Assembly: GCA_017443405.1 (NCBI GenBank)
Contig: JAFRXS010000208.1
Coordinates: 625-64,624, forward strand
DNA length: 64,000 nt
Source: Clostridia bacterium
GTDB taxonomy: Bacteria > Bacillota > Clostridia > Oscillospirales > Acutalibacteraceae
Reading direction: 5' to 3'
The notes under the pieces are model-generated. The model had not been told where the DNA came from and did no database searches. It saw only the letters and a list, made by a program, of their open reading frames with translations. A program made the position numbers and the translations under genes. Below are positions 27,765-62,673 of this stretch, in pieces. Positions within the stretch are counted from its first letter, which is position 1; each line of letters opens with the position of its first letter.

Positions 27765-27778
27765 GAGGGAGACAGGAT

Positions 27779-39328: not shown

Positions 39329-39342
39329 GGCAGGTGTCAGGC

Positions 39343-41078: not shown

Positions 41079-41090
41079 CCGGACAACCTC

Positions 41091-41135
41091 GAAAGACGGC
41101 AAAACCCCGCTAACCGCGGGGTTTTGCCGTCTTTC
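41091..41135. terminator. 20-bp perfect hairpin between the convergent operon ends (no clear U tract)
   Basis: GAAAGACGGCAAAACCCCGC (41091-41110), loop TAACC, GCGGGGTTTTGCCGTCTTTC (41116-41135). Confidence 0.6.
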
Positions 41136-41144
41136 GGATGACAT

Positions 41145-43069: not shown

Positions 43070-44962
43070 CTATTTTTTCCTTATAACCTTGACCGTGTAT
43101 CCGACATCGCTTTGTGTGACCTCGCAGTCGAACAGGGAAAGTATGAGCCGGAGTCTTTCCGCAGCCTCTGACCCGTTGTCGAGGAAGCCCGAATAATAAA
43201 ACTTGGGGATGTAAACGTATTCCGGCGTTTTCTCGGGATTCAGCTCCCAGTAATCGATCTGCCTTGGGTCAAAATCTTCCGCGATGAACCAAGTTGCGTA
43301 ACAGGAATACGGTTTGTCTGTATAAAGGTATGCCCAGGCGAACAATTCGTAAACGTAAACGGGACCCGTCGCGTTTTCTCTGATAACGTCAAGGTCGGAA
43401 AGCATCTTATTATACCGGTCTCCCGTTTCCGGAAGAGTGTAGATCCCCTTGAAAGGACCGGCGGAGAGCTTGTACGACAGATCTGGTGAAGGTGACTTAT
43501 AAGCCCCGTTGTAAGCTGAAAAAGAATCGTCAAATTCCTCGGTCCTTTCGCTGACGTTCTCAAAAAGCAGAAAGTCTTTCTCGAACAGCAGGGAGGCAGC
43601 CTCGCAGACGGGGTGCGCCCAGATGAGGACGCATAGCAGCGCGCAGACGGCTTTTTTGACGGGAAAGCTTCGTTTTTTATCCTTATTTGCGTCCGCGGCG
43701 GCTTCCGCCGCGGATGCTCTTATTTCGTCGAGCAGAGCTTTCGCGAGTATGAAAACGGCGATATTCGATATGACTCCGCCGAGCATGCATACCACAAGAT
43801 AGTTTTCGGAGGAGACGTCCATCATCGCCGAATACAGTATACCCGCCGCGTAGAACGCAAAAAACCGTTTGTATTTGCTCTTGTTTTCGATCAGCAGACA
43901 GCAGAACGCGCCGAAGATGAAAAACGGAATATGCCTCCAGAAATACATGAGCTTCGAGGCGAAGCCCATTTTGATAAGTATGCAGGCATACGTCGCGATC
44001 GCCAAAACAGCCGCGGCGGTGATATAGACAAGTCTGTGCTTCAGCCTTTTTCGGTCGGCGAGGACGGCTGTGAACAGTACGGCGTCCGCTATGAAGAAAG
44101 GAAGCCAGATCTTTCCGAGGATGTCAAACAGATCGAGGCTGAACAGGTTCTGTTTTCCGCCGTTGAGGAGCGGGAACTGATACTCGGAGTCGGTAAAGAA
44201 ATTCGGCAGGGCGGCGAGGTATTCGCTCAAAGACCCTCTTGACAGAATAAATGCGAAAAACGCCGCGGCGGAAACAACGACTCCCGCGGCGATGAACAAA
44301 AACGGTTTAAGATCGAGCAGATAGAGCGGTTTTATTTTCTTCTTAAAAATGAGAGATACAATGACTGCTATGACGTAGATAAAAAAGAAAACCGCGAGCA
44401 GCGGCTCGCTGAGCACGGCGGCACCTATAAGAAGACCGGTAATAATCAGCGTGACGGGGCGTTTGGGCTCTTTTCCGGTGAACAGAAGCAGGCAGATAAG
44501 GGTGCACGACATAAGGCTCATCGTGTAATAGCTGAGAGCCGGGCAGTTCATTACGAGATAGTGGCAGTACAGTAGAGAGCCTGCGGCAGCCGCGAAGCCG
44601 TATTTCCGCAGACGGAAGAACGCGAACAGCGAGACCCCGAACTGCGCCGCGAGATACAGATATCTGAAAGCCAGAACGATCCCTTCGGTGCCGAACAGGG
44701 CGTAATAGATCCTGAACGGTATATAGATAAGCGGCGCCGCGAACTGCGACACGTGCCATTCCTCAATAAGCAGTCTGTCGCCGAAGAACAGTCTGTGGGG
44801 AAAGGTCAGATAGACGGCTTCGTCGACCGTTCCGAGTCCCCGGTGTATATACCACACCATATAGGCGGCGAGCAGAACAAATGCTGCCCCCGTTGCGATA
44901 TACAGAGACTTATCGCGAAGTGTCGACATGATCGATCCGTTTTTTCGGCCTTTTTCAGACAT
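43070..44962 (-). CDS. GT-C-like polytopic membrane protein (paralog G2 of 6)
   Basis: ORF 43070..45025. The ATG at 44962 (MSEKGRKNG) gives an 8-nt ATGTCTGA overlap with the upstream stop. Motifs: GLGTVDEAVYLTFPHRLFFGDRLLIEEWHVSQF, GPFKGIYT and PEYVYIP. Confidence 0.55.
   Translation of the reverse strand: MSEKGRKNGSIMSTLRDKSLYIATGAAFVLLAAYMVWYIHRGLGTVDEAVYLTFPHRLFFGDRLLIEEWHVSQFAAPLIYIPFRIYYALFGTEGIVLAFRYLYLAAQFGVSLFAFFRLRKYGFAAAAGSLLYCHYLVMNCPALSYYTMSLMSCTLICLLLFTGKEPKRPVTLIITGLLIGAAVLSEPLLAVFFFIYVIAVIVSLIFKKKIKPLYLLDLKPFLFIAAGVVVSAAAFFAFILSRGSLSEYLAALPNFFTDSEYQFPLLNGGKQNLFSLDLFDILGKIWLPFFIADAVLFTAVLADRKRLKHRLVYITAAAVLAIATYACILIKMGFASKLMYFWRHIPFFIFGAFCCLLIENKSKYKRFFAFYAAGILYSAMMDVSSENYLVVCMLGGVISNIAVFILAKALLDEIRASAAEAAADANKDKKRSFPVKKAVCALLCVLIWAHPVCEAASLLFEKDFLLFENVSERTEEFDDSFSAYNGAYKSPSPDLSYKLSAGPFKGIYTLPETGDRYNKMLSDLDVIRENATGPVYVYELFAWAYLYTDKPYSCYATWFIAEDFDPRQIDYWELNPEKTPEYVYIPKFYYSGFLDNGSEAAERLRLILSLFDCEVTQSDVGYTVKVIRKK
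43599..43655. repeat. 57-nt block identical to 45493..45549
   Basis: GCCTCGCAGACGGGGTGCGCCCAGATGAGGACGCATAGCAGCGCGCAGACGGCTTTT occurs in both G2 and G3, offset by 1894 nt. Confidence 0.9.
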
Positions 44963-46862
44963 TATATTTTCTCCCGAGGATCCTGATGGTATATCCGACT
45001 TCGCTCGTTTCGACCTCGCACTCAAACAAAGAAAGCGTTTTCTCCAGCCGCTCGGCAGCCTCCGGGTAGAAGTCGTGGAAACCCGAATGGTAGATTCTCG
45101 GTATGTATATGTATTCCGGCGATCTTTGAGGGTGCAGGTCCCAGTATTCTATCTGCCTCGTTTCGAAATCAAGCGGTATGAACCACGCGGTATAAGCGGA
45201 GTACGGCTTGTCAAGACTCATATACATCCACGAAAACAAGCCGAAAACATATACGGGGCCGGTCGCTTTATCGCGGATCGCGTTCAGATCCCTCAAAAGC
45301 GCGTCGTACTTCTCCGCCGCCTGAGGCAGGGTGTATATCCCCTTGAGCGGACCGGCGGTCAGCTTCTCAGACAGATCCGGCGACTCGCTGCCGTAAGCCC
45401 CTCCGTAAACCGAGAAGGAGTCGACGTACAGCTCGCTCCTGCCGCAGATGTTCTCAAACAGAAGAAAATCCTTTTCGAACGCAAGGGAGGCCGCCTCGCA
45501 GACGGGGTGCGCCCAGATGAGGACGCATAGCAGCGCGCAGACGGCTTTTGCCGGAATACGAAGGTTTTTGCGATTATTTATCTTTATTTCCGTATCCTGT
45601 CCGGACGCTTTTATCTCGTCGAGCAGTGCTTTTGCGAATATGAACACGGCGATATTCGATATGACTCCGCCGAGCATGCAGACCACAAGATAGTTTTCGG
45701 AGGAGACGTCCATCATCGCCGAATACGGTATCCCCGCCGCGTAAAAGGCGATAAGCCTTTTGTGTTCCTTTTTGTTTTCGAGCAGCAGGCAGCAGAACGC
45801 GCCGAAGATGAAAAGCGGAATGTGCCGCCAGAGGTACATCAGGCGCGACGAAACGCCCATCCGTATCAGTATGCAAATATACGTCGCGATCGCGAGAACG
45901 GCAGCAGCGGCGATATAGACGAGCCTGCGCTCAAGTCTTTTCCTGTCCGCGAGAACGGCGATGAACAGTACCGCGTCCGCGATAAAGAACGGCAGCCATA
46001 TCTTTGACAGGACGTTGAAAAGACCGGCGTCGAAAAGGTTCTGTCCGCCGCCGCTGAGCAGCGGGAAACGGTATTCGGAGTCGGTGAAGAAGTTCGGCAA
46101 GGCGGAGAGATATTCGCTCAGAGAACCCCTTGAAAGCAAAAAAGCGAAAAAAGCCGCGGCGGAAACAACGATTCCCGCGGTGATGAATAAAAACGATTTA
46201 AGATCGAGCAGATAGAGCGGTTTTCTTTTCTTCTTGAGTATCAGAGATACCGCGACTGCGATAACGTAGATGAAATAAAACACGGCGAGCAGCGGCTCGC
46301 TGAGTACCGCCGCGCCGGTGAGCAGACCGGTAATCAAAAGCGTGAGCGGTTTCTTTGGCTCGTCGCCCGTGAACAGAAGCAGGCAGATGAGCGTGCACGA
46401 CATCAGGCTCATCGTGTAGTAGCTCAGAGCCGGGCAGTTCATCACGGTGTAGCGGCAGTACATCAGAGAAGCAACGGCGGCGATGAAACCGTATTTCCTC
46501 AGCCGGAAAAACGCGAAAAGCGAAACGCCGAACTGCGCTATAAGATACAGATACCTGAAGAAAAGTATTATGCCCTCCGTACCGCGCAGCGAGTAATAGA
46601 TCCTGAACGGAAGATACACAAGCGGTGCGGAGAACTGCGACACGTGCCACTCGTCTATCAGCAGTCTGTCGCCCTGAAGGAGCCTATGCGCGACGTTCAG
46701 GTACATGCTTTCGTCCATCGCGCCCATCCCGCGATGGATATACCATACCATATAAGCGGCGAGAAGCGCGAAGCAGCCGAGTGAGATCCCGTAAAACAAA
46801 GCGGCGTTCCGCCGCGTGAGCGGAGCGCGTAATTTTTCGATCGTCGCGCTGTTTTTTGTCAT
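44955..46862 (-). CDS. GT-C-like polytopic membrane protein (paralog G3 of 6)
   Basis: GMGAMDESMYLNVAHRLLQGDRLLIDEWHVSQF, GPLKGIYT and PEYIYIP. It is very close to G2 through the TM core. Confidence 0.55.
   Translation of the reverse strand: MTKNSATIEKLRAPLTRRNAALFYGISLGCFALLAAYMVWYIHRGMGAMDESMYLNVAHRLLQGDRLLIDEWHVSQFSAPLVYLPFRIYYSLRGTEGIILFFRYLYLIAQFGVSLFAFFRLRKYGFIAAVASLMYCRYTVMNCPALSYYTMSLMSCTLICLLLFTGDEPKKPLTLLITGLLTGAAVLSEPLLAVFYFIYVIAVAVSLILKKKRKPLYLLDLKSFLFITAGIVVSAAAFFAFLLSRGSLSEYLSALPNFFTDSEYRFPLLSGGGQNLFDAGLFNVLSKIWLPFFIADAVLFIAVLADRKRLERRLVYIAAAAVLAIATYICILIRMGVSSRLMYLWRHIPLFIFGAFCCLLLENKKEHKRLIAFYAAGIPYSAMMDVSSENYLVVCMLGGVISNIAVFIFAKALLDEIKASGQDTEIKINNRKNLRIPAKAVCALLCVLIWAHPVCEAASLAFEKDFLLFENICGRSELYVDSFSVYGGAYGSESPDLSEKLTAGPLKGIYTLPQAAEKYDALLRDLNAIRDKATGPVYVFGLFSWMYMSLDKPYSAYTAWFIPLDFETRQIEYWDLHPQRSPEYIYIPRIYHSGFHDFYPEAAERLEKTLSLFECEVETSEVGYTIRILGRKYNV
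45493..45549. repeat. 57-nt block identical to 43599..43655
   Basis: Exact copy of the block at 43599..43655. Confidence 0.9.
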
Positions 46863-46863
46863 A

Positions 46864-47976
46864 TCAGCCTCCGAAGCGGTCGCAGGCGTCTATTATCCGT
46901 TCGATCTCTTCACGGGTAAGCTCCGGGAACAGCGGCAGCGTGACGCAGTGCGCGGCGTGATACTCGCTGACGCCCAGCGGAAAGCGGGGAGCGGGAACGT
47001 CCCCGAACGCTTTCATCAGATGGCAGGGGAGCGGGTAATGGACGCGGCAGTCTATGCCGAGATCGCTCATGTGCCGAAGGAAACGGTCGCGTTCGCTGAC
47101 GTGTATGACGTACAGATGCCGCGCGGGGGAGGAATCCTCATTGTATTTCTGTTTCACGATAAGCGGATTCGTTATGCCGCGGTCGTAGATCCCGCTTATC
47201 TCCCGGCGTCGTTGGAGAGCCCCGTCGAGATGCCTAAGTTTGACTGAGAGAATTGCCGCCTGGATATCGTCCATCCTCATATTGAAGCCGACGTCGGAAT
47301 GATCTCCGTCCGCCGTTGTGCAATGCGTCTTGAACGAGTTTATAAGCTTGATCTTCTCACGGTCGCCGGATACGACGCAGCCCGCGTCCCCGCACGCGCC
47401 GAGATTTTTGGTCGGATAAAAGCTGAAGCAGCCCAGTTCACCGAGCGAGCCGGTCTTCTTGCCCTTATACAGCGCGCCGTGAGCCTGGGCGCAGTCCTCA
47501 ACGACGGGTATGCCGTGCGCGTCGGCTATGCCTTTCACCCGGTCAAAGTCGAACGGCACGCCGTAGAGATGCACGCCGACTATCGCCTTTGTCGCTTTCG
47601 TTATCCTTTTTTCGAGATCGGCGGGATCGATCTCCCACGTGTCGGGGTCTATGTCGCAGAATACCGGCGTCGCTCCGTTGTAAACGGCGCCCCACGCCGT
47701 CGCGACAAAGGTATTCGAGGGTATTATGACTTCGTCGCCTTCCCCTATGCCGAGCGCCTTGAGCGCAAGGAAGACCGCGTCGGTGCCGTTGTCGACGGCC
47801 GCTGCGTATGAAACCCCGCAGAAAGCCGCGAAGTCCTTTTCAAATCCCTTTACGAAGCGCCCGTTGCAGAAGTCGGCCGTCCCGAGGACTTCTCCCGCGG
47901 CCCTGACGTATTCGTCGTAAAGGCGCCTGTGCTGCCTGCTCAGGTCGCAGAACGGTATGGGTACTTTATTCATCAT
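46864..47976 (-). CDS. DegT/DnrJ/EryC1/StrS-family PLP-dependent sugar aminotransferase
   Basis: IPFCDL, AVDNGTDAVFLALKALGIGEGDEVIIPSNTFVATAW, VEDCAQAHGA, and FSFYPTKNLGACGDAG carrying the PLP Lys. Confidence 0.85.
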   Translation of the reverse strand: MMNKVPIPFCDLSRQHRRLYDEYVRAAGEVLGTADFCNGRFVKGFEKDFAAFCGVSYAAAVDNGTDAVFLALKALGIGEGDEVIIPSNTFVATAWGAVYNGATPVFCDIDPDTWEIDPADLEKRITKATKAIVGVHLYGVPFDFDRVKGIADAHGIPVVEDCAQAHGALYKGKKTGSLGELGCFSFYPTKNLGACGDAGCVVSGDREKIKLINSFKTHCTTADGDHSDVGFNMRMDDIQAAILSVKLRHLDGALQRRREISGIYDRGITNPLIVKQKYNEDSSPARHLYVIHVSERDRFLRHMSDLGIDCRVHYPLPCHLMKAFGDVPAPRFPLGVSEYHAAHCVTLPLFPELTREEIERIIDACDRFGG

Positions 47977-48916
47977 TCAACAGACTTTCCTCGACAATAT
48001 AACGCGGTCTGTTTTTTGAGTTCAGACCCGAAGAGTAAATATATTCCCCGAGTATCCTCAGCGCGAAAAGAAGCATCGCCGCGACAAGGAAAACGCAGGA
48101 TAAAACGAGAGCGGTCGAGGGGAAACCGCCGCGGCAGACTTTGACGAGCGAACAGATGAAGCCGGCGACCGACAGGAGAAAGCTCGCAAGGCTCATAAGA
48201 CCGATAAGGCGTATCGGCGCGCTGCTGTAGGAGGTGACCGCGCCGACGGCCATGCGGAAAAGCGATTTGAAATTATAGTGCGAGCTCCCCGCCTCGCGCG
48301 GCTTTCTGTCGTGGCAGACCACGCTGTGCTTAAAGCCCAGGAGCGGCACCTCGGCGGGCAGGAAAACGTCCGATCCGCCTCGGTCCAGCAGCGCTTCGAC
48401 CGCTCTTTTGCTCATCAGCCTGTACTGTGAATGCTCGCGGACGAATTCTATTCCGCAAAAGTCGATAAGACGGTAAAATGCACCGGACGTAAGGCGTGTC
48501 ATGAGCGGTTCGTTTCCGCGCGAGCGCCTGACGCCGTAGACTATCTCGCTGCCCTTTGCGTATTCTCTCAGCATTTCGTCTATTGCGTCCGTGCCGTCCT
48601 GAAGGTCGGCGTCAGTCGTGATCACGACGTCGGCGAAGCTTATCGCCGCCTCCATGCCCGCGAGGTTCGCGTTCTGCTCCCCGCTGTTGTGCGCCAGGCT
48701 TATGCCGGTGAACAAACTGTCGTTCTCGGACGCTTCACGGATGAGCTCCCACGTGCGGTCGGTCGAACAGTCGTTGACCATAAGGACGCGGCTCTTCGGA
48801 GAAACCAGCCCCTCGCCGATGAGCGCGCGGAGCTTTTCTTGCATGGCCGGAATGGTCAGCGGCAGCACTTCCGCCTCGTTATAGCAGGGGAGAACGATAC
48901 ACAGAGTATCCGCCAA
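47966..48916 (-). CDS. polyprenyl-phosphate glycosyltransferase, GT2 of the GtrB/ArnC/CsbB type
   Basis: IVLPCYNEAEVL, VNDCSTDRT, TTDADLQD and YRLMSKRAV are followed by two C-terminal TM helices and LGEYI...K.RPRYIVEE. This is the typical bactoprenol-P sugar synthase architecture. Confidence 0.8.
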   Translation of the reverse strand: MADTLCIVLPCYNEAEVLPLTIPAMQEKLRALIGEGLVSPKSRVLMVNDCSTDRTWELIREASENDSLFTGISLAHNSGEQNANLAGMEAAISFADVVITTDADLQDGTDAIDEMLREYAKGSEIVYGVRRSRGNEPLMTRLTSGAFYRLIDFCGIEFVREHSQYRLMSKRAVEALLDRGGSDVFLPAEVPLLGFKHSVVCHDRKPREAGSSHYNFKSLFRMAVGAVTSYSSAPIRLIGLMSLASFLLSVAGFICSLVKVCRGGFPSTALVLSCVFLVAAMLLFALRILGEYIYSSGLNSKNRPRYIVEESLLNDE

Positions 48917-48931
48917 GAGAGATCACGTCCT

Positions 48932-50416
48932 TTATTTCAGATCGTATTTTTTGAGGATGAGAGGGAAGAAATAGCGGTTGACGAAAACGCTCAGGAACTG
49001 ATAGGCGGCGGCAAACGCCTCGGAGAAAAAGTATATGACGCCGTGGCCGAACAGACCCTTTACCGCGTCGGTGACGGTCTTTACCGCGAAGCTGTGCTCC
49101 TGCTCTTTGCCGTCGGCGCTCCCCTTTGCCCAGAAGCTCTGCCACAGGAAGAACGCCCTGACGACCTTGAGGTCGCGGTTCGGTATCTCCGAATAGTTTT
49201 TAAGGACCTTGTAAAGCGAAAACGCTCTTGCTTCCCTTTTGAGATCGAAGGTCCTCGCGTGGAGTTTTTCATAGTCCGGCAGGTTGTTGTACATGGCGGA
49301 CCGCGCGAAGGGCAGGTAAAAATTGAACTGGTACTGGGAAGTCCTTATCTTTTTCGCGAAGTCGACCGTCTGCTTGAAATCCTCCGTCTTCTCGCCCGGC
49401 AGGGCGATGATGAACGCCGTGACGGTATTGAGCCCCGCGTCGTAAGCGGCGTTGACGGAAGCGGCAGCGGCGTCGAGGTCCAGCCCCTTGCAAACCGTTT
49501 TCTGCATGCGCGGGCTGCCCGTTTCTATGCCGATGAAGACCCAGCGGCAGCCGACGGAATACATCAGATCGTAATCCTCTCTGCTGAAGATGTCCGCCCT
49601 GGTCTGGCAGCCCCATTTGATGTCGAGCCCGGAGTCGCGCAGCTTTTCGCAGAACTCTTTGAGCCACGCTCTGCCGGTGCCGAAGCACTCGTCGGCGAAA
49701 TAAGCCGCGCGCATATCGTATCCATCATGAAGCATCTTAAGCTCTGCGATAACGTCGTCTATCGGCCGCAGCCGCTGCCTGCACAGATGGAAATACGGGT
49801 TGTAGCAGAAGGTGCAGGACCCCGGGCAGCCCTTTGAGGCGTAGACGTGAAGGCCGTTTTTGCAGCCGTAAAAGGTCTCGAAATACTTGGCGACGGGCAC
49901 GAGCGACCAGTCGAGCACGCCGAGTTCGGCAAGATCCAGGAACGGGGCGCGTCGGTTCGTGACCATTTTGCCGTCCTTTAAATAAGCTGCCGAGCCGACG
50001 TCCTCTATCTTCCTTTTGCCCTCGTAGTACTCTATAATGTGGAGCCACGAGATCTCGCCCTCGCCGATCGAAACTATGTCGCCTATGCGGTTGTGAAGCA
50101 TCGATTCGGGCATCATGGAAGCCACCGGACCGCCGGCTACGACGTGCGCGCCGTGCTCTCTCGCCATTGAGGCTATGAACACCGCATCCTCGAGTCCCAG
50201 AGCGGATACCGTGGATATCCCGACTATATCGGGTCGCCTGAGCGTTAGCTCCTCCTTAAGGTCGAGGTGGTTCATCATTCGGTCGCAGATCCACGCTTCG
50301 TGCCCCCGCCGGTTCAGAAAGGTACACAACGAAATGGCCCCCAGCGGAGCGGCCGGCGAACCTGTGTATTTTTCTGCCATGGGGAGAACAAAGAGTATCT
50401 TCACGTTGACGTCCAA
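48932..50416 (-). CDS. B12-binding-domain radical SAM protein, short class (rSAM-A2)
   Basis: PLGAISLCTFLNRRGHEAWICD, PDIVGISTVS, AHVVAGGPVAS and ASKGCPGSCTFC. The start is uncertain (TTG at 50416 or GTG at 50404), and no strong RBS is visible. Confidence 0.8.
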   Translation of the reverse strand: MDVNVKILFVLPMAEKYTGSPAAPLGAISLCTFLNRRGHEAWICDRMMNHLDLKEELTLRRPDIVGISTVSALGLEDAVFIASMAREHGAHVVAGGPVASMMPESMLHNRIGDIVSIGEGEISWLHIIEYYEGKRKIEDVGSAAYLKDGKMVTNRRAPFLDLAELGVLDWSLVPVAKYFETFYGCKNGLHVYASKGCPGSCTFCYNPYFHLCRQRLRPIDDVIAELKMLHDGYDMRAAYFADECFGTGRAWLKEFCEKLRDSGLDIKWGCQTRADIFSREDYDLMYSVGCRWVFIGIETGSPRMQKTVCKGLDLDAAAASVNAAYDAGLNTVTAFIIALPGEKTEDFKQTVDFAKKIRTSQYQFNFYLPFARSAMYNNLPDYEKLHARTFDLKREARAFSLYKVLKNYSEIPNRDLKVVRAFFLWQSFWAKGSADGKEQEHSFAVKTVTDAVKGLFGHGVIYFFSEAFAAAYQFLSVFVNRYFFPLILKKYDLK

Positions 50417-50427
50417 AATAAAATAAC

Positions 50428-50455
50428 TTGACTATAATTCAATTATCATTATAAT
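50428..50455 (+). promoter_or_regulatory. consensus sigma-A promoter for operon 3 (CotH side)
   Basis: TTGACT (50428-50433), 16-nt spacer, TATAAT (50450-50455). Confidence 0.6.
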
Positions 50456-50476
50456 ATATACAGAAGTTCATGTCAA
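50448..50476 (-). promoter_or_regulatory. consensus sigma-A promoter for operon 2 (rSAM-A2 side)
   Basis: On the minus strand: TTGACA (complement 50471-50476), 17-nt spacer, TATAAT (complement 50448-50453). Its -10 overlaps the plus-strand -10 within ATTATAAT. Confidence 0.6.
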
Positions 50477-52547: not shown

Positions 52548-52550
52548 CAG

Positions 52551-54461: not shown

Positions 54462-54531
54462 ACAGGTATCTGTCGGATCGTATCATTATTGAATATCAGT
54501 GTTTTTCTGTAATATCACGGAGGATGCGTCA

Positions 54532-56346
54532 TTGTTTGATAAACGTACCGCCAAAACAGTATATACGGATATCGCATTTATTGTGGCGTTGGTATCGTTT
54601 TGTTCGCTTTTTGTCTATAAGGCGTTTCACTCAGTCTGCGATAACGACGAGAGCTCGATCATTTTTTACGCGCTTAGGTATGTCACAGGCGCGCGCGTAT
54701 TGTTTGAGGAAAGGCTCTCCGGCATCTTCGTTCTGCCCGTCGTAAAGCTGTGGTACGCTCTCGCCGGGACGACCGAGGGCATCGTACTGTTTTCGCGGCT
54801 GTCATTCGTCGCGTCGCAGACGGCGGTTGCCGCTTTCCTTTACTCACGGCTGAGAAAATACGGCGTTTTCTCTGTGCCCGCCGTCCTGATTTGGTATTTC
54901 AACGTCCCGTCCTGGTCGATGACCCTGCTGTATTACAATACCGTAGTCGTCATGATGACGGGCGTCGTCGCAGCGCTGGTGCTATCGATCCCAAAGCGTC
55001 GTTCGGGGCTCCATATGTTCTTTATCGGTTTTGCCGGGGCTGTCGCGATCCTCTGCTCTCCCTTTTCTGCTTCGGCATATTTTGCCTATACCGTCGCGGT
55101 TGCGGTCTGCTTTATCCGAGCGAAAAAACGCCCCGCGAGCTTCGCCGCGCCCGTCATGCTCAGGCCAGGCTCGTGGCTGCTCGTGACGCTCGGAGCTTTC
55201 TTTGTTGCTGCTGCCGTCGTTGTTTACCTGTTTCAAGGGACGTCTCCGGAACAGGTTCTCGCTGAGTATACGTTCTTTAACGGTGACGGTTCGTCCGGCG
55301 GCGCGATATCCGTTATCTTCGGTTCAAAGGATAAACTGGCTCCGCTGTTCCTGGCGTATCTTCCTCTGACTGTCGGAGTCATCCTGCCCCCGTCGATCCT
55401 GACGCTCGCCGCGGCGGTCGATAAAAAACGGGTCGGTCACGGGGAGGTCTACATCATCGCCGGGACTGTCGTCTGTATCGTGTGTGACGCCGTGATCCTG
55501 TTTTATAAAACATACTCAGAAGTAAACAGGGCGCTTGAGAACATTCTGCTTTTGTATGCCGTATTCGCTCTTTACGGTCTGCTTTGCTATCTCGTTACCG
55601 AAAAAAAGGAGCGTTTGGTCTTTACCACGCTGTTTTGCGGAGGTCTTTTTGCCGCGATCATGAGGTGCTGCGAATCGCAAAGCTTCGTATTCGCCGGCGC
55701 TGCGGTGATGTCAGGTTGTCTCGCGGGCGCGGCCGTATCTGCTGGAAAGAAGGCGGAGGAGGGCTTCGTCAGGGGAAGCAAATCAGGGAAAGCGATCGCG
55801 GTCCTGATCGCCGCCGCCATGAGCGTTCAGCTTTTTTCTCAGGTCTTTCTGTTCCTGAATATGAGGTTTTCAGTTGAAAACCACTACGGCGCAAGCATCA
55901 GCGCGGACAGGCTCGACTCTCGTATCGGTTCCGGTCCTCTGAAAGGTATATACACGACTGAAGCCATGGCGGAATACTATTCCGGTATTATGTCGGATAT
56001 CGAAGTTATCAAAGCCGAGACCGAAGGACAGGTCCTTACGACAAACGAGCTCACCTGGATATATCTTGCCCTGGGTGACAGAGCGACCGCTATGTACAGC
56101 GAGTATTTGGACAACGAATGGGTCGACGCAGAGAGTATGCGGCAGTACTACGAGCGTTATCCCGATACGGTCCCGGGCTGCATCTACGTCACATACCGGG
56201 ATGTCTCCTCAACACGTTCCGGAGTCATTCTGCCGTCTGTTCGCGTCGCAGAACCGGAACAGAAGGACCTGTTCAGGGAAATAATCAATAATTATCCGGG
56301 GAGAGTCACGTTCGGGGAATCGGGATATATAATAGATCTTCGATAA
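54532..56346 (+). CDS. GT-C-like polytopic membrane protein (paralog G4 of 6)
   Basis: ORF 54499..56346. The TTG at 54532 lies 9 nt after a GGAGG. Motifs: CDNDESSIIFYALRYVTGARVLFEERLSGIF, GPLKGIYT, and WIYLALGD in the tail. Confidence 0.5.
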   Translation: MFDKRTAKTVYTDIAFIVALVSFCSLFVYKAFHSVCDNDESSIIFYALRYVTGARVLFEERLSGIFVLPVVKLWYALAGTTEGIVLFSRLSFVASQTAVAAFLYSRLRKYGVFSVPAVLIWYFNVPSWSMTLLYYNTVVVMMTGVVAALVLSIPKRRSGLHMFFIGFAGAVAILCSPFSASAYFAYTVAVAVCFIRAKKRPASFAAPVMLRPGSWLLVTLGAFFVAAAVVVYLFQGTSPEQVLAEYTFFNGDGSSGGAISVIFGSKDKLAPLFLAYLPLTVGVILPPSILTLAAAVDKKRVGHGEVYIIAGTVVCIVCDAVILFYKTYSEVNRALENILLLYAVFALYGLLCYLVTEKKERLVFTTLFCGGLFAAIMRCCESQSFVFAGAAVMSGCLAGAAVSAGKKAEEGFVRGSKSGKAIAVLIAAAMSVQLFSQVFLFLNMRFSVENHYGASISADRLDSRIGSGPLKGIYTTEAMAEYYSGIMSDIEVIKAETEGQVLTTNELTWIYLALGDRATAMYSEYLDNEWVDAESMRQYYERYPDTVPGCIYVTYRDVSSTRSGVILPSVRVAEPEQKDLFREIINNYPGRVTFGESGYIIDLR

Positions 56347-56369
56347 GACGTCTGCCCGGGGAGGCGAAT

Positions 56370-58217
56370 ATGAATACCGGCGGTTCTGCCCGCGGAAAAA
56401 TCAGCATATATGACGTGGCTTTTATTGCTGGAGCAATGATCTGCGTCGGGCTGCTCGCGTACAAGGCGTTTTTTTCGTTAGGCTACGATGACGAGAGCGA
56501 GATCATACTCAACTCCCTGCGTTTTGTACGCGGGGACAGGATGCTCGTCGACGACTGGCACGTTTCCCAGTTGAGCTCGTTTTTTCTTTATCCTTTTATC
56601 CTGGCGTATCATAAGCTGACCGGCTCGGCAGAAGGGATCGTTCTTTTCTCCCGCGTCGTTTACGTCTTCGTCAAGACGTTCGTTTCTGCGGCGGCGTATA
56701 TCACGCTGCGCCCGTATAAAAAAGGAGCCGTCGCCGCCTCGCTGCTTTTCCTCATCCACGAGCCGGTCTGGACCTCGTTGACCATTTACTACAACACCGG
56801 TCTGCTTCTTGCCGGCGAGTGCCTTTCGCTTCTGCTGTTTTCCCTTGATTCCGGGCGCGCGCGGCTGAAAACGTATCTTATAGGCGTGTGCTGCGCGTTA
56901 TGCGTCGTCGCCTCGCCCTATACAGCCGTCCTTTTCGCGGGCTATACCGCCGCCGTGACCGCCGCTGCCGTCAAGGGGCGGATAAAAAAAGCGCGCGGCG
57001 CGGACGGAGGGAAAGCCGCAGGCTTTTCTTTGCTGACTGCGAAGAGCTGGCTCACCGTTTCGGCGGGCATAGCGACCGTCGCGCTCGTTTTCTTCGCGTA
57101 TCTGATGAGAAGCAACTCGTTCGGAGAGATAGTCAAAAACCTGCCGATGGTCTTTTATGACGACGAGTACACCGCCGGCGTGCTTTCCGGCTTCGCCGAC
57201 CTGCCGGTCAACATGAAGAGGTATCTGCTTCATGTCGCCTCCGTAATCCCCGTGTGGGCGAGCGCCGCCGGCGCGGCCGTTCTCATAGCCGCAGCCGTCG
57301 ACAGGGGACGGGTCAGACGCCGCATAGTCTATATCGTCCCGATGTTTGCGGTCTGCCTGTTCGGAGTCGTATATCCTTACGCCTCCGGGGATGGAGCGGC
57401 GGGGGATCGCAGATATGAATCGTTGATCTTCGCGGCATTCGGCGTTCTGTGCTATATGCTGACGGTCGGCAGGAATAAAAGAGTTTTTCGTTTTCTGTTC
57501 GTCCCCGGTGCGCTCATGACCATCCTTCGGACGCTGGAGTCCGATATCTTCTTTGCCTCCGGGGCGATGATCGCTCCGGTCGCCCTGACCGGCGCCGCGC
57601 TGATGATCGCAGACTGCTTCCGCGAGATCGTAAAGAACGCGCCGTCAAGGGCTTTCTCCCGCTGCGCGGCGGTATTCGCCGCCCTGTTCTTCGCCGTCCA
57701 GTTCTGCTACCGGTTCGACAATCTGCGTTCGCCCGCCTCCTTCGTGGAGTATGAGTACGGCGACAGCGTCACCGCGGGCAAAATGTCCGAAAGACTCGGG
57801 CGCGGCCCGATGAAAGGGCTTTTTACTGCGAGGTGGACGGCGAGGATGTACTGTTCGGCGCTGGACGACCTCGATCTGATAGCCTCGCGGTGCGACGGGC
57901 CGGTGATGGTCCCCGACGAGGTCTGCTGGATCTATATGTACCTTGACGATATGCCGATGGGCTCGTACAGCGGTTATATCGTCGCCGAAAACTGGGTGGA
58001 GTTCGACAGCGTCAAAATGCGCCGGTATTACGAGCGTCACCCCGAGCGGTATCCGTCCGTTATCTACATTCCGTATTTCACGGCGAATTACGAGCGCAAA
58101 AATCCGGCTCTGCGCGAGGTCGTCGACTCGATAAGGGCAGAGTACCCCGGGGAAATAAATAAAGGTCGGGCGGGATATATCTACTATGTCTCCCGCGGAG
58201 AAACGAATGAGGAATAA
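56370..58217 (+). CDS. GT-C-like polytopic membrane protein (paralog G5 of 6)
   Basis: LGYDDESEIILNSLRFVRGDRMLVDDWHVSQL, GPMKGLFT, WIYMYLDD and PSVIYIPY. Confidence 0.55.
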   Translation: MNTGGSARGKISIYDVAFIAGAMICVGLLAYKAFFSLGYDDESEIILNSLRFVRGDRMLVDDWHVSQLSSFFLYPFILAYHKLTGSAEGIVLFSRVVYVFVKTFVSAAAYITLRPYKKGAVAASLLFLIHEPVWTSLTIYYNTGLLLAGECLSLLLFSLDSGRARLKTYLIGVCCALCVVASPYTAVLFAGYTAAVTAAAVKGRIKKARGADGGKAAGFSLLTAKSWLTVSAGIATVALVFFAYLMRSNSFGEIVKNLPMVFYDDEYTAGVLSGFADLPVNMKRYLLHVASVIPVWASAAGAAVLIAAAVDRGRVRRRIVYIVPMFAVCLFGVVYPYASGDGAAGDRRYESLIFAAFGVLCYMLTVGRNKRVFRFLFVPGALMTILRTLESDIFFASGAMIAPVALTGAALMIADCFREIVKNAPSRAFSRCAAVFAALFFAVQFCYRFDNLRSPASFVEYEYGDSVTAGKMSERLGRGPMKGLFTARWTARMYCSALDDLDLIASRCDGPVMVPDEVCWIYMYLDDMPMGSYSGYIVAENWVEFDSVKMRRYYERHPERYPSVIYIPYFTANYERKNPALREVVDSIRAEYPGEINKGRAGYIYYVSRGETNEE

Positions 58218-60054
58218 GACGCGCGGCGTCGGAAAGATCGATAAATGGGACCTCGTTTTCGCTGCGGGTCTTATTGCCTGCGTCTGTCTTATGCTTTATA
58301 AGGCGCTTATGTCGACCGGCGATGACGACGAGCACGTGCTTATCCTCAACGCCTTCCGTCTTGCCCGGGGCGACCGACTGCTTGTCGACGACTGGCACAT
58401 GTCGCACATGAGCGGCATTTTCCTCGCTCCGTTTCTTTGGGTCTTCCACGCTGTCACCGGCTCATGCGACGGCATGGTACTTTATTCCCGCTGCGTCTTT
58501 ATCGCCGTTCAGGCGGCTGTCGGCGCCGCGACCTATCTCACCCTGCGGAGATACGGCCGTCCGTCCGCAGCGGCTGCGTCGCTCGTTTTCTTTTTCAACG
58601 TGCCGACCTACACCGATATGGTGCTTTACTATAACTCAACGCTCTGTCTGGCGGCTCAGCTCTGCTCTTTGCTGCTTATCTCCGTCTGCGGACGTTTCTC
58701 GTTCGTAAAAGCCGTGCTCGCAGGCGTGCTGTTCTCTGTCTGTGTTATTTCGTCCCCCTACGCCGCATTTATTTTCCTCGCATACACCCTGTCCGTTCCC
58801 GTATACCGCGCGGTCGTAAAGAAACGCGGCGGAGCGTTCGCTCCCGTTTTCGGCTTTAAATGCTGGGCGGGCGTTACTCTGGGCGTCGTTCTTTCGGCGG
58901 CGGTTTTCGCCGCGGCCGTGCTGAGCCGCGCGAGCCTCGACGAGCTTCGCGTGAGCATACCGATGCTGCTGAGCGACGGCGATTATCCCGGCGGCGCGGC
59001 GGACGGCATAATCAATCTGTTCTCGAAGTACAAAAAGTTTTTCACCCGTCACAGCTTTGCCTTCATAGCGCCCTTCGCTGCGGCCGGAGGTGTTCTTGCC
59101 CTCGTCGCGGCGTTTGACCGCGGACGGAAAAGGCGGCGCTGTGTATACGTCCTGCTCGCCTGCGCATGGTACGCGGCGTCTGTCGCCGCGACGCTCCTGC
59201 ATAAAGCTTCCCTGACGGTGAAGCCGCAGATCGCCGTCGCTCTGCCGGGCATGATCTTCACGCTCGCGGGCTTTGTCGTTTATATCTGCGTATCAAAGAA
59301 AAACAAACCGGTCTATCTGATACCGACCGTGCTCGGCCTGCTTGCCGCGTTCGCCAGGAGCTGCGAATCCGAGATGGTAATTTTCGCTTTCGGGACCGTC
59401 GTGCCCGTCTGTCTTACCGGCGCGGTCATGGCGTTCGGCGGCGCCGCGCGCGAGCTCTTTGTCGACGGCGGCGCGCGCGCGGGGCTCAAAAAGGCGGCGG
59501 CAGTTTCGCTTGCCGTTGTCACCGCGCTCGAGCTGTCTGTTCAGGCAGGCGTGAACGTCTACCCCAAATTCAACGACGAGTATACCTATTACGGCGTCGC
59601 CCGAAGCGAAAAGCTCGACACAAGGATAAGCGTCGGCCCGCTTAAGGGGCTTTACACGACCGCGAACGAGGAAAAGCTCTACCTCGACACGCTTGCCGAC
59701 CTCGACCTCATCAAATCCGAGTGCGAAGGGCCCGTCATGGTCGCCTCCAAGCTCTCGTGGGCATATCTGTATATGGATTCGCTGACGGTAGGCGCGTTCA
59801 GCGGCTGCCTTGACAGCAGCGACTGGCTGCCGTACAAGAGCGAAAAGATGAAGCTGTATTTCAAGCAGTATCCCGAGCGTTATCCCGAGTTCATCTATAT
59901 ACCTTATTACGACAACCACGCCAGGGTATATTATCTTCTGAGAGTGAAGACCCCGGTCGAGATACAAAAGGGCATTTTCGAGAACGTCAGAGAGGATTAT
60001 CCCGGCGAGCTCACTCGCGGCAAGGCCGGATATATTATCAGGACGCAGGCATGA
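58207..60054 (+). CDS. GT-C-like polytopic membrane protein (paralog G6 of 6)
   Basis: ORF 58186..60054, with an ATG at 58207 (MRNKTRGVG). Motifs: STGDDDEHVLILNAFRLARGDRLLVDDWHMSHM, GPLKGLYT, WAYLYMDS and PEFIYIPY. Confidence 0.55.
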   Translation: MRNKTRGVGKIDKWDLVFAAGLIACVCLMLYKALMSTGDDDEHVLILNAFRLARGDRLLVDDWHMSHMSGIFLAPFLWVFHAVTGSCDGMVLYSRCVFIAVQAAVGAATYLTLRRYGRPSAAAASLVFFFNVPTYTDMVLYYNSTLCLAAQLCSLLLISVCGRFSFVKAVLAGVLFSVCVISSPYAAFIFLAYTLSVPVYRAVVKKRGGAFAPVFGFKCWAGVTLGVVLSAAVFAAAVLSRASLDELRVSIPMLLSDGDYPGGAADGIINLFSKYKKFFTRHSFAFIAPFAAAGGVLALVAAFDRGRKRRRCVYVLLACAWYAASVAATLLHKASLTVKPQIAVALPGMIFTLAGFVVYICVSKKNKPVYLIPTVLGLLAAFARSCESEMVIFAFGTVVPVCLTGAVMAFGGAARELFVDGGARAGLKKAAAVSLAVVTALELSVQAGVNVYPKFNDEYTYYGVARSEKLDTRISVGPLKGLYTTANEEKLYLDTLADLDLIKSECEGPVMVASKLSWAYLYMDSLTVGAFSGCLDSSDWLPYKSEKMKLYFKQYPERYPEFIYIPYYDNHARVYYLLRVKTPVEIQKGIFENVREDYPGELTRGKAGYIIRTQA

Positions 60055-61517
60055 ACGTATTGCTCATAGAACCCGCGGTCGGCTTTTACGACCGTACTAT
60101 GTCGACTCCGCTGGGGCTTCTCTCCATCGGGTCCTATTTGAAGTATCACGGTCATAACGTCCGCATCCTTGACAGGAGCCTCGAAAAAACGACTCTGAAA
60201 ACGGTCTGCGATGAGTTCCGCCCCGACGTCGCCGGCGTTTCCGTCATGTCGTCAAGAGGACTTTCCGACGCGATCGGGGTTTCAAAGCTTCTTAAGTCAT
60301 TCGGTCTTACCGTCGTCTGGGGCGGTCAGCTGCCCACGTTTTATCCTGAGCTCGTTATTGAAAAGGAGTATGTGGATATCGTGTCCGTGGGCGAGGGCGA
60401 GGAGACGTGGCTGGAGCTTCTTGACCGGTTCTCCAAGGGCGCAGATATCGACGGAGTACTCGGCGTGGTTTATAAAAAAGACGGCGCCGTCATCCGTACC
60501 GCTTGCCGCCCGTTCAGCGACCTCAGCTCTTTCCCGCCGACGGATTGGTCGCTGATAGACGTGCCCAAATATATGCAGACGTACATCGGCTGCAAAAAAA
60601 TGATGTACCTTTATTCCTCCAAGGGCTGCCCGGGGCGCTGCGCGTTCTGCTCAAACGTCACCTACCACAAAAGCACGCACCGCGACCGGCCGAACGAACA
60701 GGTCGTCGCCGAGATCAGGTATCTTTACGAGAACTACGGGCTGGACGGCGTTTACTTCTCAGACGAGGTCTGGCGCCTCAGGCGCTCCGATATGCAGGAT
60801 TTCTGCCGCCGCATGAAGGAGGAGGGTATGCCCGTCAGGTGGGGCGTCGACCTGCGCGTCGGCATATTCAACGAGGAGGATTACCGCCTTATGTATGAGG
60901 CGGGCTGCCGGTGGATCTTCTTCGGCATAGAGAGCGGCTCGCGCGAGATGCAGCGTCTGATACACAAGAACATAGACTACGACGCGATAAAACCGACTGT
61001 TGAGCTTCTCAACCGCATCGGCTATACGACCATGTCGTCCTTTATCGTCGGTTTTCCCGACGAGACCGAACAGCAGCTTCGCGACACGGCCGCGATGCTC
61101 AATTCACTTCCGATCGGCCTCACGCCGATCTTCCACTTCACCCCGCTCCCCGGCACGGAGCTTTACGAAAAACTGGTCGCCGACGGACGGCTGATCCCGC
61201 CGCGCAGGCTCGAGGACCTGCTCGAGGTCATACCGACCGAGACCTTGGGCGTCAATTACTCCGCCGTACCCGACCGGGACCTCAAGGTCGTTCGCAACTG
61301 GTTCCACTGGAAGAGCTTCACGAAGAAAAACGCCATTCAGGACTCAAAGCCGTTCGAGTTCGCGCGGCAGACGATCAAAAGCACGCTGAAAGAGATCTCA
61401 AAAATGGGGTTCCACGGTTTGTTTGTGAACGTCTTTTCCGCCGCTTTTGAGTTCCTTTACGTGTTTTGGTATTCGCATATGTTTCCGGGCGTAAAGAAAA
61501 AATACGGACTGAGGTGA
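60051..61517 (+). CDS. B12-binding-domain radical SAM protein, short class (rSAM-A3)
   Basis: PLGLLSIGSYLKYHGHNVRILD, PDVAGVSVMS, LTVVWGGQLPT and SKGCPGRCAFC. An ATGA overlap links it to G6. Confidence 0.8.
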   Translation: MNVLLIEPAVGFYDRTMSTPLGLLSIGSYLKYHGHNVRILDRSLEKTTLKTVCDEFRPDVAGVSVMSSRGLSDAIGVSKLLKSFGLTVVWGGQLPTFYPELVIEKEYVDIVSVGEGEETWLELLDRFSKGADIDGVLGVVYKKDGAVIRTACRPFSDLSSFPPTDWSLIDVPKYMQTYIGCKKMMYLYSSKGCPGRCAFCSNVTYHKSTHRDRPNEQVVAEIRYLYENYGLDGVYFSDEVWRLRRSDMQDFCRRMKEEGMPVRWGVDLRVGIFNEEDYRLMYEAGCRWIFFGIESGSREMQRLIHKNIDYDAIKPTVELLNRIGYTTMSSFIVGFPDETEQQLRDTAAMLNSLPIGLTPIFHFTPLPGTELYEKLVADGRLIPPRRLEDLLEVIPTETLGVNYSAVPDRDLKVVRNWFHWKSFTKKNAIQDSKPFEFARQTIKSTLKEISKMGFHGLFVNVFSAAFEFLYVFWYSHMFPGVKKKYGLR

Positions 61518-61540
61518 CCCTCAGTCCGTATTCGTTTATT
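61502..61540. terminator. bidirectional terminator closing operon 3 and the convergent acyltransferase gene
   Basis: ATACGGACTGAGG-TGAC-CCTCAGTCCGTAT, a 13-14 bp stem. The rSAM-A3 stop codon lies in the loop. An A-run precedes the stem and a T-rich tail follows it. Confidence 0.7.
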
Positions 61541-61545: not shown

Positions 61546-62673
61546 TTACCCGGCAGCCGCCCGATCCTTCTTTTCTCCGGGCTTCCGGCATTTCGCCGCC
61601 TTTTTTATCCTGTTCCAGAGCAGGCTCGCCCCGACCGTCAGCAGGCAGACGGCGACGGAGAGCGGCGCTCCCGCGGCGGGGTGAAGGAGACCGCCGGATG
61701 AAAGCTTGACGGCGATATACCCGATCAGCATGAACGGCCACTGCAGCACGTAGATATTCGTGATATTGCGCGAAAGATACTCCGCGCCCTTCTTCGCTCT
61801 GCCTTTTACGATATGCGCCGCGGCGAAGAACAGCGCCGCCCACACGACCTCCTGACTGATATACCATACGGCGGCGGGCAGTATCTGCGAATGATACATG
61901 TCCGTGAGTAAATAATCCGTGATATCGAAGTCGGTGAGGCGGAATATCACGCTCGCCGCCGCGCAGACCGCCGCTCCGCAGGCTGCGCAGATGATATAGA
62001 ATCTGCGTTTGTTCGCCGTCCGTTTAAGAAGCCCGCCGAAAAGCATCCCGGATGCCGCGTATATGAAGAACGGGAAAAGAGGGTACATCGTGATCGACGT
62101 CGAGCCGGTGAACAACAGCGTGCCCGCGAGATACCTCACGGCGGTCGGGCTCCCGTCGAACGCTCCCGTCAGGAACGTGGAGGCGCAAAGCTGCATAACG
62201 AGCGCCGTCAGCGCGATCGCCCACGGCCTGAACCTCAGTTTTTTGAGCAGGGCGGTCAGCAGGAAAGTCAGCCCCGCGAACTGCAGTATCTCCGTCGTGA
62301 AGACGAGGTACAGATCTCCGCCGGCGGCGAGCTCCTTCACGTTGAAGCCGGTGAATATCAGGCTCGGTAAAACGTCCTTCGCGAAATTGAGAAGGTAGCC
62401 CTCAAGCATCAGCTTGACGCCGCGTTTCGCGAATGCGTCGGGGGAGGAGCGCGACGTGTAGACCATGCCTATCCCCATACAGAAGATAAAAAGCCCCGAT
62501 GCGGAGTTTCCCAGATAGTATATAACATGTTTCAGAAGATCGTCGTTCACGCCGGCTGTCGTCATAAGATCGAACACGTGGCATACTATCATGGTTATGA
62601 TGCTGAACGCTTTTATGAGGTCTATCTCGAACTGTCTTCCCGCGTTCGGGAATCCGGTCTTCAAGTCGGTCAT
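61546..62673 (-). CDS. acyltransferase-3/DUF1624-like integral membrane protein
   Basis: RQFEIDLIKAFSIITMIVCH fits the R-x3-(I/L)D-x2-(R/K)-x9-H N-terminal signature of membrane O-acyltransferases. About 10 TM helices. Confidence 0.5.
   Translation of the reverse strand: MTDLKTGFPNAGRQFEIDLIKAFSIITMIVCHVFDLMTTAGVNDDLLKHVIYYLGNSASGLFIFCMGIGMVYTSRSSPDAFAKRGVKLMLEGYLLNFAKDVLPSLIFTGFNVKELAAGGDLYLVFTTEILQFAGLTFLLTALLKKLRFRPWAIALTALVMQLCASTFLTGAFDGSPTAVRYLAGTLLFTGSTSITMYPLFPFFIYAASGMLFGGLLKRTANKRRFYIICAACGAAVCAAASVIFRLTDFDITDYLLTDMYHSQILPAAVWYISQEVVWAALFFAAAHIVKGRAKKGAEYLSRNITNIYVLQWPFMLIGYIAVKLSSGGLLHPAAGAPLSVAVCLLTVGASLLWNRIKKAAKCRKPGEKKDRAAAG

Follow-up and report, generated by a model that had tools for sequence, protein, structure and literature searches.

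Six paralogous membrane proteins with a predicted GT-C fold in two divergent clostridial operons, and a candidate route for decorating the cell surface

What would one bacterium do with six versions of the same large membrane protein, arranged as two triplets in divergent operons? The question is raised by a 64-kb stretch of DNA from a Clostridia bacterium (hereafter the window, meaning the whole stretch that was analysed), in which three plus-strand genes, G4, G5 and G6, encode diverged relatives of three minus-strand genes, G1, G2 and G3. An earlier note, made from the letters alone, had likened the six proteins to glycosyltransferases of the C-type fold (GT-C), the class of enzymes by which most extracytoplasmic glycans are built or decorated, and had proposed that each serves a different linkage or acceptor. 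From sequence comparisons and a structure model, we think it fairly probable that G4-G6 are functional, co-transcribed paralogues and that the six predicted GT-C proteins move a lipid-linked sugar to different envelope acceptors as a variable repertoire. Under this reading, the six-paralogue set most likely decorates the cell surface of its host, an uncultured Clostridia bacterium of gut or rumen.

The three plus-strand genes are as follows.

54532..56346, plus strand: G4, member of the predicted GT-C-fold family, 604 amino acids (aa), TTG start at 54532 with GGAGGA at 54519-54524; family hidden Markov model (HMM) E 1e-144.
56370..58217, plus strand: G5, member of the same family, 615 aa, called from its open reading frame (ORF); the protein used for the structure model, with Foldseek matches to GT-C only.
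58207..60054, plus strand: G6, member of the same family, 615 aa from the ATG at 58207; family HMM E 3e-164.

An alternative start for G4 is a GTG at 54499; the TTG at 54532 is more likely, because it has GGAGGA upstream and because the resulting 604 aa fit the 600-605 aa of its orthologues, and it is also the start taken in the earlier note. For G6, an ATG at 58186 would give 622 aa; the database entry P0008 begins at 58207, which is most likely the start.

How closely are the six related? By BLASTP, the plus-strand proteins share 31% (G4-G5, E 8e-73), 32% (G4-G6, 1e-85) and 36% (G5-G6, 3e-123) identity, whereas on the minus strand G2 and G3 share 73%, and each is 39% identical to G1. Between the triplets, eight of the nine pairs align at 26-29% identity over ~560-660 residues with E values of 1e-32 to 1e-42; the exception is G3-G5, for which the best single segment covers only 133 residues (30%, E 3e-17). 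By these sequence measures, the similarity of the six proteins greatly exceeds what chance would give, and of the two triplets that on the plus strand is the more diverged, as the earlier note had described it. Its count of six paralogues also stands, as the family HMM finds exactly six members across the window.

Alignment of G4-G6 recovered most of the motifs that had been described. All three proteins have an acidic cluster after the first transmembrane (TM) helix (DNDESS, YDDESE, DDDEHV) and a GPxKG motif (GPLKGIYT, GPMKGLFT, GPLKGLYT), and the WHVS-type block reported for G5 and G6 reads LVDDWHVSQ and LVDDWHMSH. G4 has indeed lost this block, through a deletion of four residues (LFEE----RLSGIF). 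Two further motifs ascribed to the whole triplet, W(I/A)Y(L/M)Y and P..IYIPY, proved to be complete only in G5 and G6; G4 departs from both, with WIYLA and PGCIYVTY.

To what family do these proteins belong? No Pfam or NCBIfam model matched any of the six at E values up to 0.1, and five unfused family representatives gave no significant Pfam match. We took as evidence of membership in a known GT-C family a significant match to its Pfam or NCBIfam model or to one of its solved proteins, and found none for PMT_2/ArnT (GT83), PMT (GT39), STT3/PglB (GT66), YfhO, Emb/Aft or the other families of this kind. The family is nonetheless large: when 1.84 billion cluster representatives were searched exhaustively with its profile, 3449 clusters at 50% identity were returned (E <=1e-3), 1181 of them at E <=1e-30. 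Some members outside the window (P0045, P0055, P0093, P0146) carry an N-terminal acyltransferase-3 (AT3) domain fused to the GT-C-like body. Literature searches turned up no paper on this family or on a system combining GT-C and radical S-adenosylmethionine (SAM) enzymes. We conclude that this is a new sequence family inside a known fold class and not a member of a known family.

The fold class was assigned from an AlphaFold2 model of G5, built with 13 sequences as input (predicted local distance difference test, pLDDT, 78.8; predicted TM-score, pTM, 0.84). In a Foldseek search of the PDB with this model, ranks 1-18 were all GT-C enzymes, with probabilities of 0.96-1.00 and a best E of 4e-5, and included STT3, AglB, PglB, yeast oligosaccharyltransferase (OST), Pmt4, EmbA/B, AftA and AftB. 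The next entries were transporters, at probabilities of <=0.25 and TM-scores of ~0.1. GT-C superfamily domains are polytopic, with 7-13 TM helices (PMC11127046). For G5, the helices of the model and the charge of the loops predict 13 TM helices with the N terminus inside and a C-terminal alpha/beta domain of ~160 residues outside; lysine and arginine in short loops number 12 per 55 residues on the cytoplasmic side and 10 per 128 on the outer side.

The conserved residues of the family fall into this topology in a consistent way. External loop 1 (residues 34-89 in G5 numbering, used throughout) holds D41, E42, R51, G55-D56, E62-W63 and Q67, and across 170 family sequences D41 is conserved in 98%, E42 in 95% and E62-W63 in 96%, with D56/W63/Q67 retained in 92-96%. 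In the same 170 sequences, the conserved residues of the C-terminal domain are G479-P-x-x-G483, Y494, D500, Y522, P562 and Y566, and conserved residues lie mostly on the outer face. The Asp-Glu pair after TM1 (D41, E42) is intact in all six window copies, so the decay of acidic motifs against which the earlier note had advised a check shows no sign here; by their conservation in the loop after TM1, these acidic residues are putatively catalytic. Together with the 13-TM topology, this outer-face placement in the model is the anatomy that defines GT-C enzymes (PMC11127046), and the comparison of the earlier note to GT-C proteins is supported by the predicted model, by its 18 top matches and by the Asp-Glu pair in external loop 1.

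Are all six copies likely to work? G4, G5 and G6 are intact, and each can be aligned with G1-G3 over its full length. Of 28 columns that are each >=85% conserved in the family, every window copy keeps 24-28 (G4 24/28, G6 25/28). G4 lacks D56, W63 and Q67 through its four-residue deletion, and this loss is common to its orthologues and found only in them, indicating from the alignment a derived trait of a conserved orthogroup. Decay of G4 was considered and rejected, given that the loss is common to orthologues under purifying selection. NG86 estimates, which are rough, put dN/dS (the ratio of nonsynonymous to synonymous substitution rates) at 0.12-0.26 for G1, G2, G4 and G5 against a relative that we call A and for G3 against a relative that we call C, consistent with purifying selection on the paralogues that have orthologues. 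Simple-sequence repeats, and inverted repeats flanking or inverting the promoter, were searched for at the locus and none was found. Phase variation was rejected on this basis, in line with the opinion of the earlier note that phase-variable redundancy was less likely.

The paralogues do not diverge evenly along their length. External loop 1 is the best-conserved region between them. External loop 4 (residues 247-294) is the least conserved, at 8-20% identity within G4-G6 but 52-62% between orthologues, and the C-terminal domain likewise diverges between paralogues and is conserved between orthologues. Even in the young G2/G3 pair, the C-terminal domain is the most diverged part (60% versus 79-85% in the membrane core). 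Retention of loop 1 with divergence of loop 4 and the C-terminal domain fits a common donor chemistry with divergent acceptor recognition. That the paralogues use different acceptors or linkages is thus the best-supported reading, on indirect evidence from these alignments, and this much of the earlier proposal survives; the analogy to a fixed line of six required steps is not supported.

What donor might such enzymes share? The two operons diverge from one 118-bp AT-rich intergenic region. The minus operon runs from a 494-aa radical SAM gene through a family 2 glycosyltransferase (GT2) and a DegT gene to G3, G2, G1 and a 21-bp hairpin; the plus operon holds two CotH genes, G4, G5, G6, a 488-aa radical SAM gene and a hairpin terminator. 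The promoters and the minus operon are as follows.

50428..50476, both directions: back-to-back sigma-70-like promoters (minus TTGACA-17-TATAAT, 12/12; plus TTGACT-16-TATAAT, 11/12).
48932..50416, minus strand: B12-binding radical SAM enzyme, 494 aa, first gene of the operon (Pfam).
47966..48916, minus strand: GT2 of the ArnC/GtrB/PgfS type with C-terminal TM helices (NCBIfam PgfS 3e-42, ArnC 3e-26).
46864..47976, minus strand: DegT/PseC/ArnB-like sugar aminotransferase (Pfam DegT_DnrJ_EryC1 4e-108; 32% identity to E. coli ArnB, E 9e-53).
44955..46862, minus strand: G3, family member, 635 aa (ORF, alignment, family HMM).
43070..44962, minus strand: G2, family member, likely ATG start at 44962 (ORF, alignment, family HMM).
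41145..43067, minus strand: G1, family member, 640 aa (ORF, alignment, family HMM).
41090..41136, no strand: perfect 21-bp inverted repeat (hairpin) just after G1 (inverted-repeat scan, repeat I3).

The hairpin at 41090..41136 is likely the terminator of the minus operon, judging by its sequence and position. The longest ORF of G2 begins at a TTG at 45025 and overlaps the end of G3 by 71 nt; from the in-frame ATG at 44962 the overlap is 8 nt, and this ATG appears the more likely start.

The GT2 covers residues 3-305 of 308 in the PgfS model and 8-312 of 316 in the ArnC model, with both scores under the equivalog cut-offs, and BLASTP aligns its residues 5-310 to E. coli ArnC at 26% identity (E 4e-27). 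Its TDADLQ aligns with LDADLQ of ArnC, so the protein has the GT-A domain, DxD motif and C-terminal TM helices of the ArnC/GtrB/PgfS type. With a GT2 like ArnC and a DegT protein like ArnB, the minus operon mirrors arnB-arnC...arnT, and the gene context points to modification of an extracytoplasmic glycan or glycoprotein with a lipid-linked amino sugar. From the ArnC/PgfS-type GT2 in the operon and in relatives, we infer a polyprenyl-phosphate-linked sugar as the donor of the GT-C proteins. There is precedent for this arrangement: streptococcal PgfS with the GT-C enzyme PgfM1, and GtrB with PgtC2, glycosylate extracytoplasmic regions of proteins from an undecaprenyl-phosphate-sugar (10.1101/2024.05.05.592596), and in three-component Gtr systems a GtrB-type GT2 makes the undecaprenyl-phosphate-sugar and the GT-C component sets acceptor and linkage (PMC11127046).

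We therefore propose a five-step pathway. The DegT aminotransferase would make a nucleotide-activated amino sugar, which the ArnC/GtrB/PgfS-type GT2 would attach to polyprenyl phosphate on the inner side of the membrane. The sugar might then be remodelled by the adjacent B12-dependent radical SAM enzymes before being flipped across the membrane, where, at the outer face, each GT-C paralogue would transfer it to its own acceptor or position on an envelope glycan or surface protein. The catalytic loop would be common to the paralogues, and external loop 4 and the C-terminal domain would set the choice of acceptor. G1, G2/G3 and the G4-G5 pair would form the part of the set that recurs in relatives, with G6 occupying a variable third slot.

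If the six proteins were steps of one pathway, they would be expected to persist as a set. We assigned orthogroups from a neighbour-joining tree and reciprocal BLAST, with bootstrap values calculated for the G1, G4 and G5 groups only.

G1: orthologues on four contigs, 72-74% identity, bootstrap 100%.
G2: orthologue L003_632 / P0162, 74%.
G3: orthologues P0166 (79%) and P0009 (76%).
G4: orthologues in L001, L004, L056 and P0005, 61-65%, bootstrap 100%.
G5: orthologues in L001, L056 and L057, 60-61%, bootstrap 100%.

G6 has no orthologue: no full-length sequence above ~37% identity appeared in a search of 5.8 billion proteins or in the metagenome scan. That scan, for relatives of G5 and G6, found only distant members, at ~25-30% identity over full-length matches and more only in short fragments; human-gut metagenome assemblies were the source of many of these members. 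A scan of genome contigs with a radical SAM query gave only chance matches, of 23-28% identity and from unrelated phyla. The relatives come from rumen and gut metagenomes and from one Clostridia metagenome-assembled genome (MAG). The conserved orthogroups that the earlier note had made a check of its claim are thus present for G1-G5 and lacking for G6, and the number of copies differs among relatives.

The locus is built of the same parts elsewhere, in varying number. In relatives A (L001/L003) and C (L024) the neighbourhood again comprises a radical SAM gene, the GT2, DegT and tandem paralogues, and the GT2 is 83-97% identical in A and C. The copies at the locus number six in the window, four in A, four in B and two in C. 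Relative B has a rearranged locus with two other paralogues. Relative C shares 97% identity with the window in the GT2 and 95% in DegT, and only 79% in the G3 orthologue; G1 and G4-G6 are not on its 16.9-kb contig. The orthologues of G4 and G5 are adjacent in relatives A, D and E, and the slot after them is filled by G6 in the window, directly by the radical SAM gene in A, by no further paralogue in D, and in E by a paralogue nearer G1-G3. Throughout, orthologues of the paralogues are 60-79% identical where neighbouring donor genes are 79-97% identical, so by sequence identity the paralogues evolve faster than the donor-pathway genes. These comparisons indicate that orthogroups exist, yet the paralogue repertoire is not fixed.

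Synonymous divergence (dS) also varies along the locus. Between the window and relative C, adjacent genes gave dS values of 0.15 (GT2), 0.20 (DegT), 0.68 (G3) and 1.23 (494-aa radical SAM), and against relative A the 488-aa radical SAM gene gave 0.31 and its neighbours ~1. Such jumps between adjacent genes imply recombination, making the locus a recombination mosaic.

The association with sugar genes recurs at other loci. A distant Clostridia MAG locus, L026, has FdtA, DegT, GT2 and four tandem paralogues, two nearest G1-G3 and two nearest G4-G6. At locus L029, three family members in tandem are accompanied by a GT2, three B12 radical SAM genes, a methyltransferase and an NTP-transferase, and at L023 a single family member is found with DegT, FdtA, radical SAM genes and a 241-aa GT2.

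Several points weigh against variable decoration by GT-C enzymes. Neither by sequence nor by profile could the proteins be linked to a known GT-C family: profile searches of the PDB with 6 and with 144 family sequences found nothing meaningful, and hhalign of the family against E. coli ArnT gave a probability of 1%. The structure model covers one paralogue, G5, and its TM-scores to solved GT-C structures, 0.31-0.45, are modest (<0.5). For most pairs dS is ~1, near saturation, which is what makes the dN/dS values rough. Many distant family members are solitary, with no GT2 nearby; no flippase gene was recognised in the locus, and no acceptor was identified for the paralogues.

With these points in mind, how do other explanations fare? 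One is that the paralogues form hetero-oligomeric GT-C complexes like Pmt1-Pmt2 or EmbA-EmbB, with G4 a catalytically altered partner of G5. The conserved G4-G5 adjacency in A, D and E speaks for it, as does the fact that the G4 orthogroup alone lacks D56/W63/Q67, kept by 92-96% of the family; the pairing of two G1-G3-like with two G4-G6-like copies in L026 would also fit. However, in relative B the G4 orthologue adjoins that of G1, and none of the four family members on the 22 kb retrieved is orthologous to G5, the 16.9-kb contig of relative C has no member of the G4-G6 group at all, and G4 retains the invariant D-E and 24 of the 28 conserved columns. We consider complexes of this kind unlikely as an account of the locus, and note that G4 and G5 are possibly a working pair.

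The fixed sequential assembly line of the earlier note, with each protein making one linkage of one polymer as the Emb/Aft enzymes do for mycobacterial arabinan, is decidedly improbable. It would explain six non-identical, intact copies in two co-regulated divergent operons and conserved orthogroups for five of the six, and EmbA/B, AftA and AftB are among the fold matches. A strict pathway should persist as a set, however, and the locus instead holds 6, 4, 4 or 2 copies among relatives, its third plus-operon slot is variable and filled here by an orphan, and the mosaic of dS between adjacent genes indicates recombination. On these comparisons, a variable set of decorating enzymes, as in Gtr or serotype systems, is preferred to a fixed mycobacterial-style line, which the data do not support in the form proposed.

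We would be greatly surprised if the proteins were not glycosyltransferases at all but a transporter or flippase, a polymerase or ligase, or a non-sugar transferase that merely resembles GT-C in the model. The want of any sequence-level link to a known GT-C family and the TM-scores of only 0.31-0.45 would allow this, and in a locus so rich in B12 radical SAM enzymes the substrate could be a lipid and not a sugar. Yet the 18 top fold matches are all of the GT-C_A type, with transporters at TM-scores of ~0.1, the invariant acidic pair is positioned exactly as in GT-C enzymes, and ArnC/GtrB-type GT2 genes recur as neighbours. Finally, that the copies are redundant, decaying or phase-variable is largely refuted and hardly credible: G2 and G3 are 73% identical and G6 lacks an orthologue, but all six copies are intact with 24-28 of the 28 conserved columns each, dN/dS is well below 1, G2 and G3 have separate orthologues, and there are no simple or invertible-promoter repeats and one consensus promoter per operon.

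The remaining genes of the plus operon and its neighbour are as follows.

50535-52547 and 52551-54461, plus strand: CotH-kinase-family genes in tandem, the first two of the operon; both carry a Flg_new repeat at the C terminus (Pfam CotH E 2e-20, 2e-23).
60051..61517, plus strand: B12-binding radical SAM enzyme, 488 aa, start overlapping the G6 stop (Pfam B12-binding and Radical_SAM).
61500..61533, both directions: bidirectional terminator-like hairpin with a 14-15 bp stem, closing the operon (repeat scan).
61546..62673, minus strand: acyltransferase-3 (AT3/HGSNAT) membrane protein, convergent with the plus operon (Pfam).

Each operon therefore has three family members and one radical SAM gene, as had been described, although "short" suits these two genes only beside the four upstream copies (503 to ~745 aa). 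Identity of the 488-aa enzyme to its counterparts is 94% (relative A), 85% (C) and 74% (B). Both translations close with a tail of ~25 hydrophobic, aromatic-rich residues and then KKYxL(K/R) (48932-49030, minus strand; 61420-61517, plus strand). The tail might anchor the enzyme in the membrane, as would suit a lipid-linked substrate. In all, six B12-binding radical SAM genes lie within ~35 kb (26253-34245, plus; 48932-50416, minus; 60051-61517, plus). A 241-aa GT2 resembling AglJ and dolichyl-phosphate-hexose transferases (29685-30410) is flanked by radical SAM genes, and this radical SAM/GT2/radical SAM module is conserved in L003 and L023. In L029, the three B12 radical SAM genes precede the three tandem family members.

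Each protein of the CotH pair (50535-54461) has an N-terminal membrane anchor. Family members have CotH genes nearby in L001/L003, L004, L021 and L024 as well, and in L004 these adjoin VTC and DUF4956 genes. The CotH proteins could be an acceptor or partner of the system. In relatives A and D the AT3 gene directly precedes the G4 orthologue, and in B it directly precedes another family member.

Beyond the minus operon, at 34288-41078 on the plus strand, are four tandem polytopic membrane paralogues of ~420 aa (35-49% identical) followed by two membrane proteins of ~290-300 aa, and none of these six matched a Pfam or NCBIfam model. Members of the 420-aa family adjoin the 620-aa family of G1-G6 in L003 (three copies), L023 and L024 as well. 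Its structure model is poor (pLDDT 58.8), with PglB as the top Foldseek match (E 0.064), and hhalign of the two families gave a probability of 45%. These are weak hints, from modelling, that the 420-aa proteins may be GT-C-like.

In a bolder reading, the proteins would found a new GT-C family at the CAZy level and would belong to an extracytoplasmic glycosylation system of four parts; B12 radical SAM enzymes associated with the membrane would remodel the amino sugar, while lipid-linked or nucleotide-linked and ahead of its transfer, for example by C-methylation or deoxygenation; and arrays of fast-evolving paralogues, with G4-G5 as a conserved pair and an exchangeable third slot, would create strain-specific glycotypes. 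We put this forward tentatively and expect that it may well fail as a whole. If true, it would mean that an unusual sugar is placed on different surface acceptors, giving strain-specific surface glycotypes in gut and rumen Clostridia. The family has no curated model, structure or characterised member despite its 3449 clusters, and its characterisation would give an annotation to thousands of membrane proteins of gut and rumen Clostridia that are now called hypothetical, would probably define a new glycosyltransferase family and might reveal a surface sugar modified by radical SAM enzymes. A variable paralogue repertoire is also a candidate determinant of strain-level surface diversity, with a bearing on phage and host recognition.

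How does this locus compare with known systems? The best fold matches of the family are PglB, AglB and STT3 (CAZy GT66), with which it shares 13 predicted TM helices, an N-in/C-out topology, an extracytoplasmic C-terminal domain and an acidic residue opening external loop 1. Unlike these enzymes, it has no sequence similarity to them and no WWDYG motif, its C-terminal motifs are GPxKG, WxYL and PxxIYIP, and the adjoining GT2 implies a monosaccharide-phosphate donor, not a pyrophosphate-linked oligosaccharide. EmbA/B/C, AftA and AftB are likewise matched in fold, and are also tandem paralogues presumably working on one lipid-linked donor with differing acceptors. In contrast to them, the family shows no sequence similarity, has no carbohydrate-binding module or curated Pfam domain detected in the C-terminal part, and varies in repertoire between close relatives. 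Protein O-mannosyltransferases (PMT, GT39) carry a DE motif in the first external loop, where the family has its Asp-Glu pair, and act as paralogue dimers; Pmt4 is a fold match, but no PMT or MIR domain was matched, and the loop architecture and C-terminal domain differ.

The founding of GT-C families is ongoing, with GT136 founded as a GT-C sequence family in 2024 (PMC11127046). In GT136, a pentofuranose three-component system, the C. youngae protein ORF12 is partnered by a polyprenyl-phosphoribose synthase; the partner here is a GT2, not a synthase dependent on phosphoribosyl pyrophosphate (PRPP). The family described here recurs in arrays beside an ArnC-type GT2, an aminotransferase and B12 radical SAM enzymes, and what is new is a sequence family with the predicted GT-C fold whose gene partners, B12 radical SAM and CotH, are unusual. 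Along with GT136, the three-component systems (GtrA/GtrB/GtrC, ArnB-ArnC-ArnT, CsbB/YfhO, GacI/GacL, PgfS/PgfM1) resemble our locus in placing a GtrB/ArnC/PgfS-type GT2 beside polytopic proteins of the GT-C fold. Unlike in those systems, the predicted GT-C proteins here lie outside YfhO, PMT_2/ArnT and the other curated families, there are three to six of them for one GT2, the operons include B12 radical SAM and CotH genes, and no flippase was recognised. The likeness to ArnB-ArnC-ArnT extends to an ArnB-like aminotransferase within the same operon, and the combination of conserved donor genes with faster-evolving, strain-variable GT-C genes is that of the serotype-specific GtrC proteins (PMC11127046).

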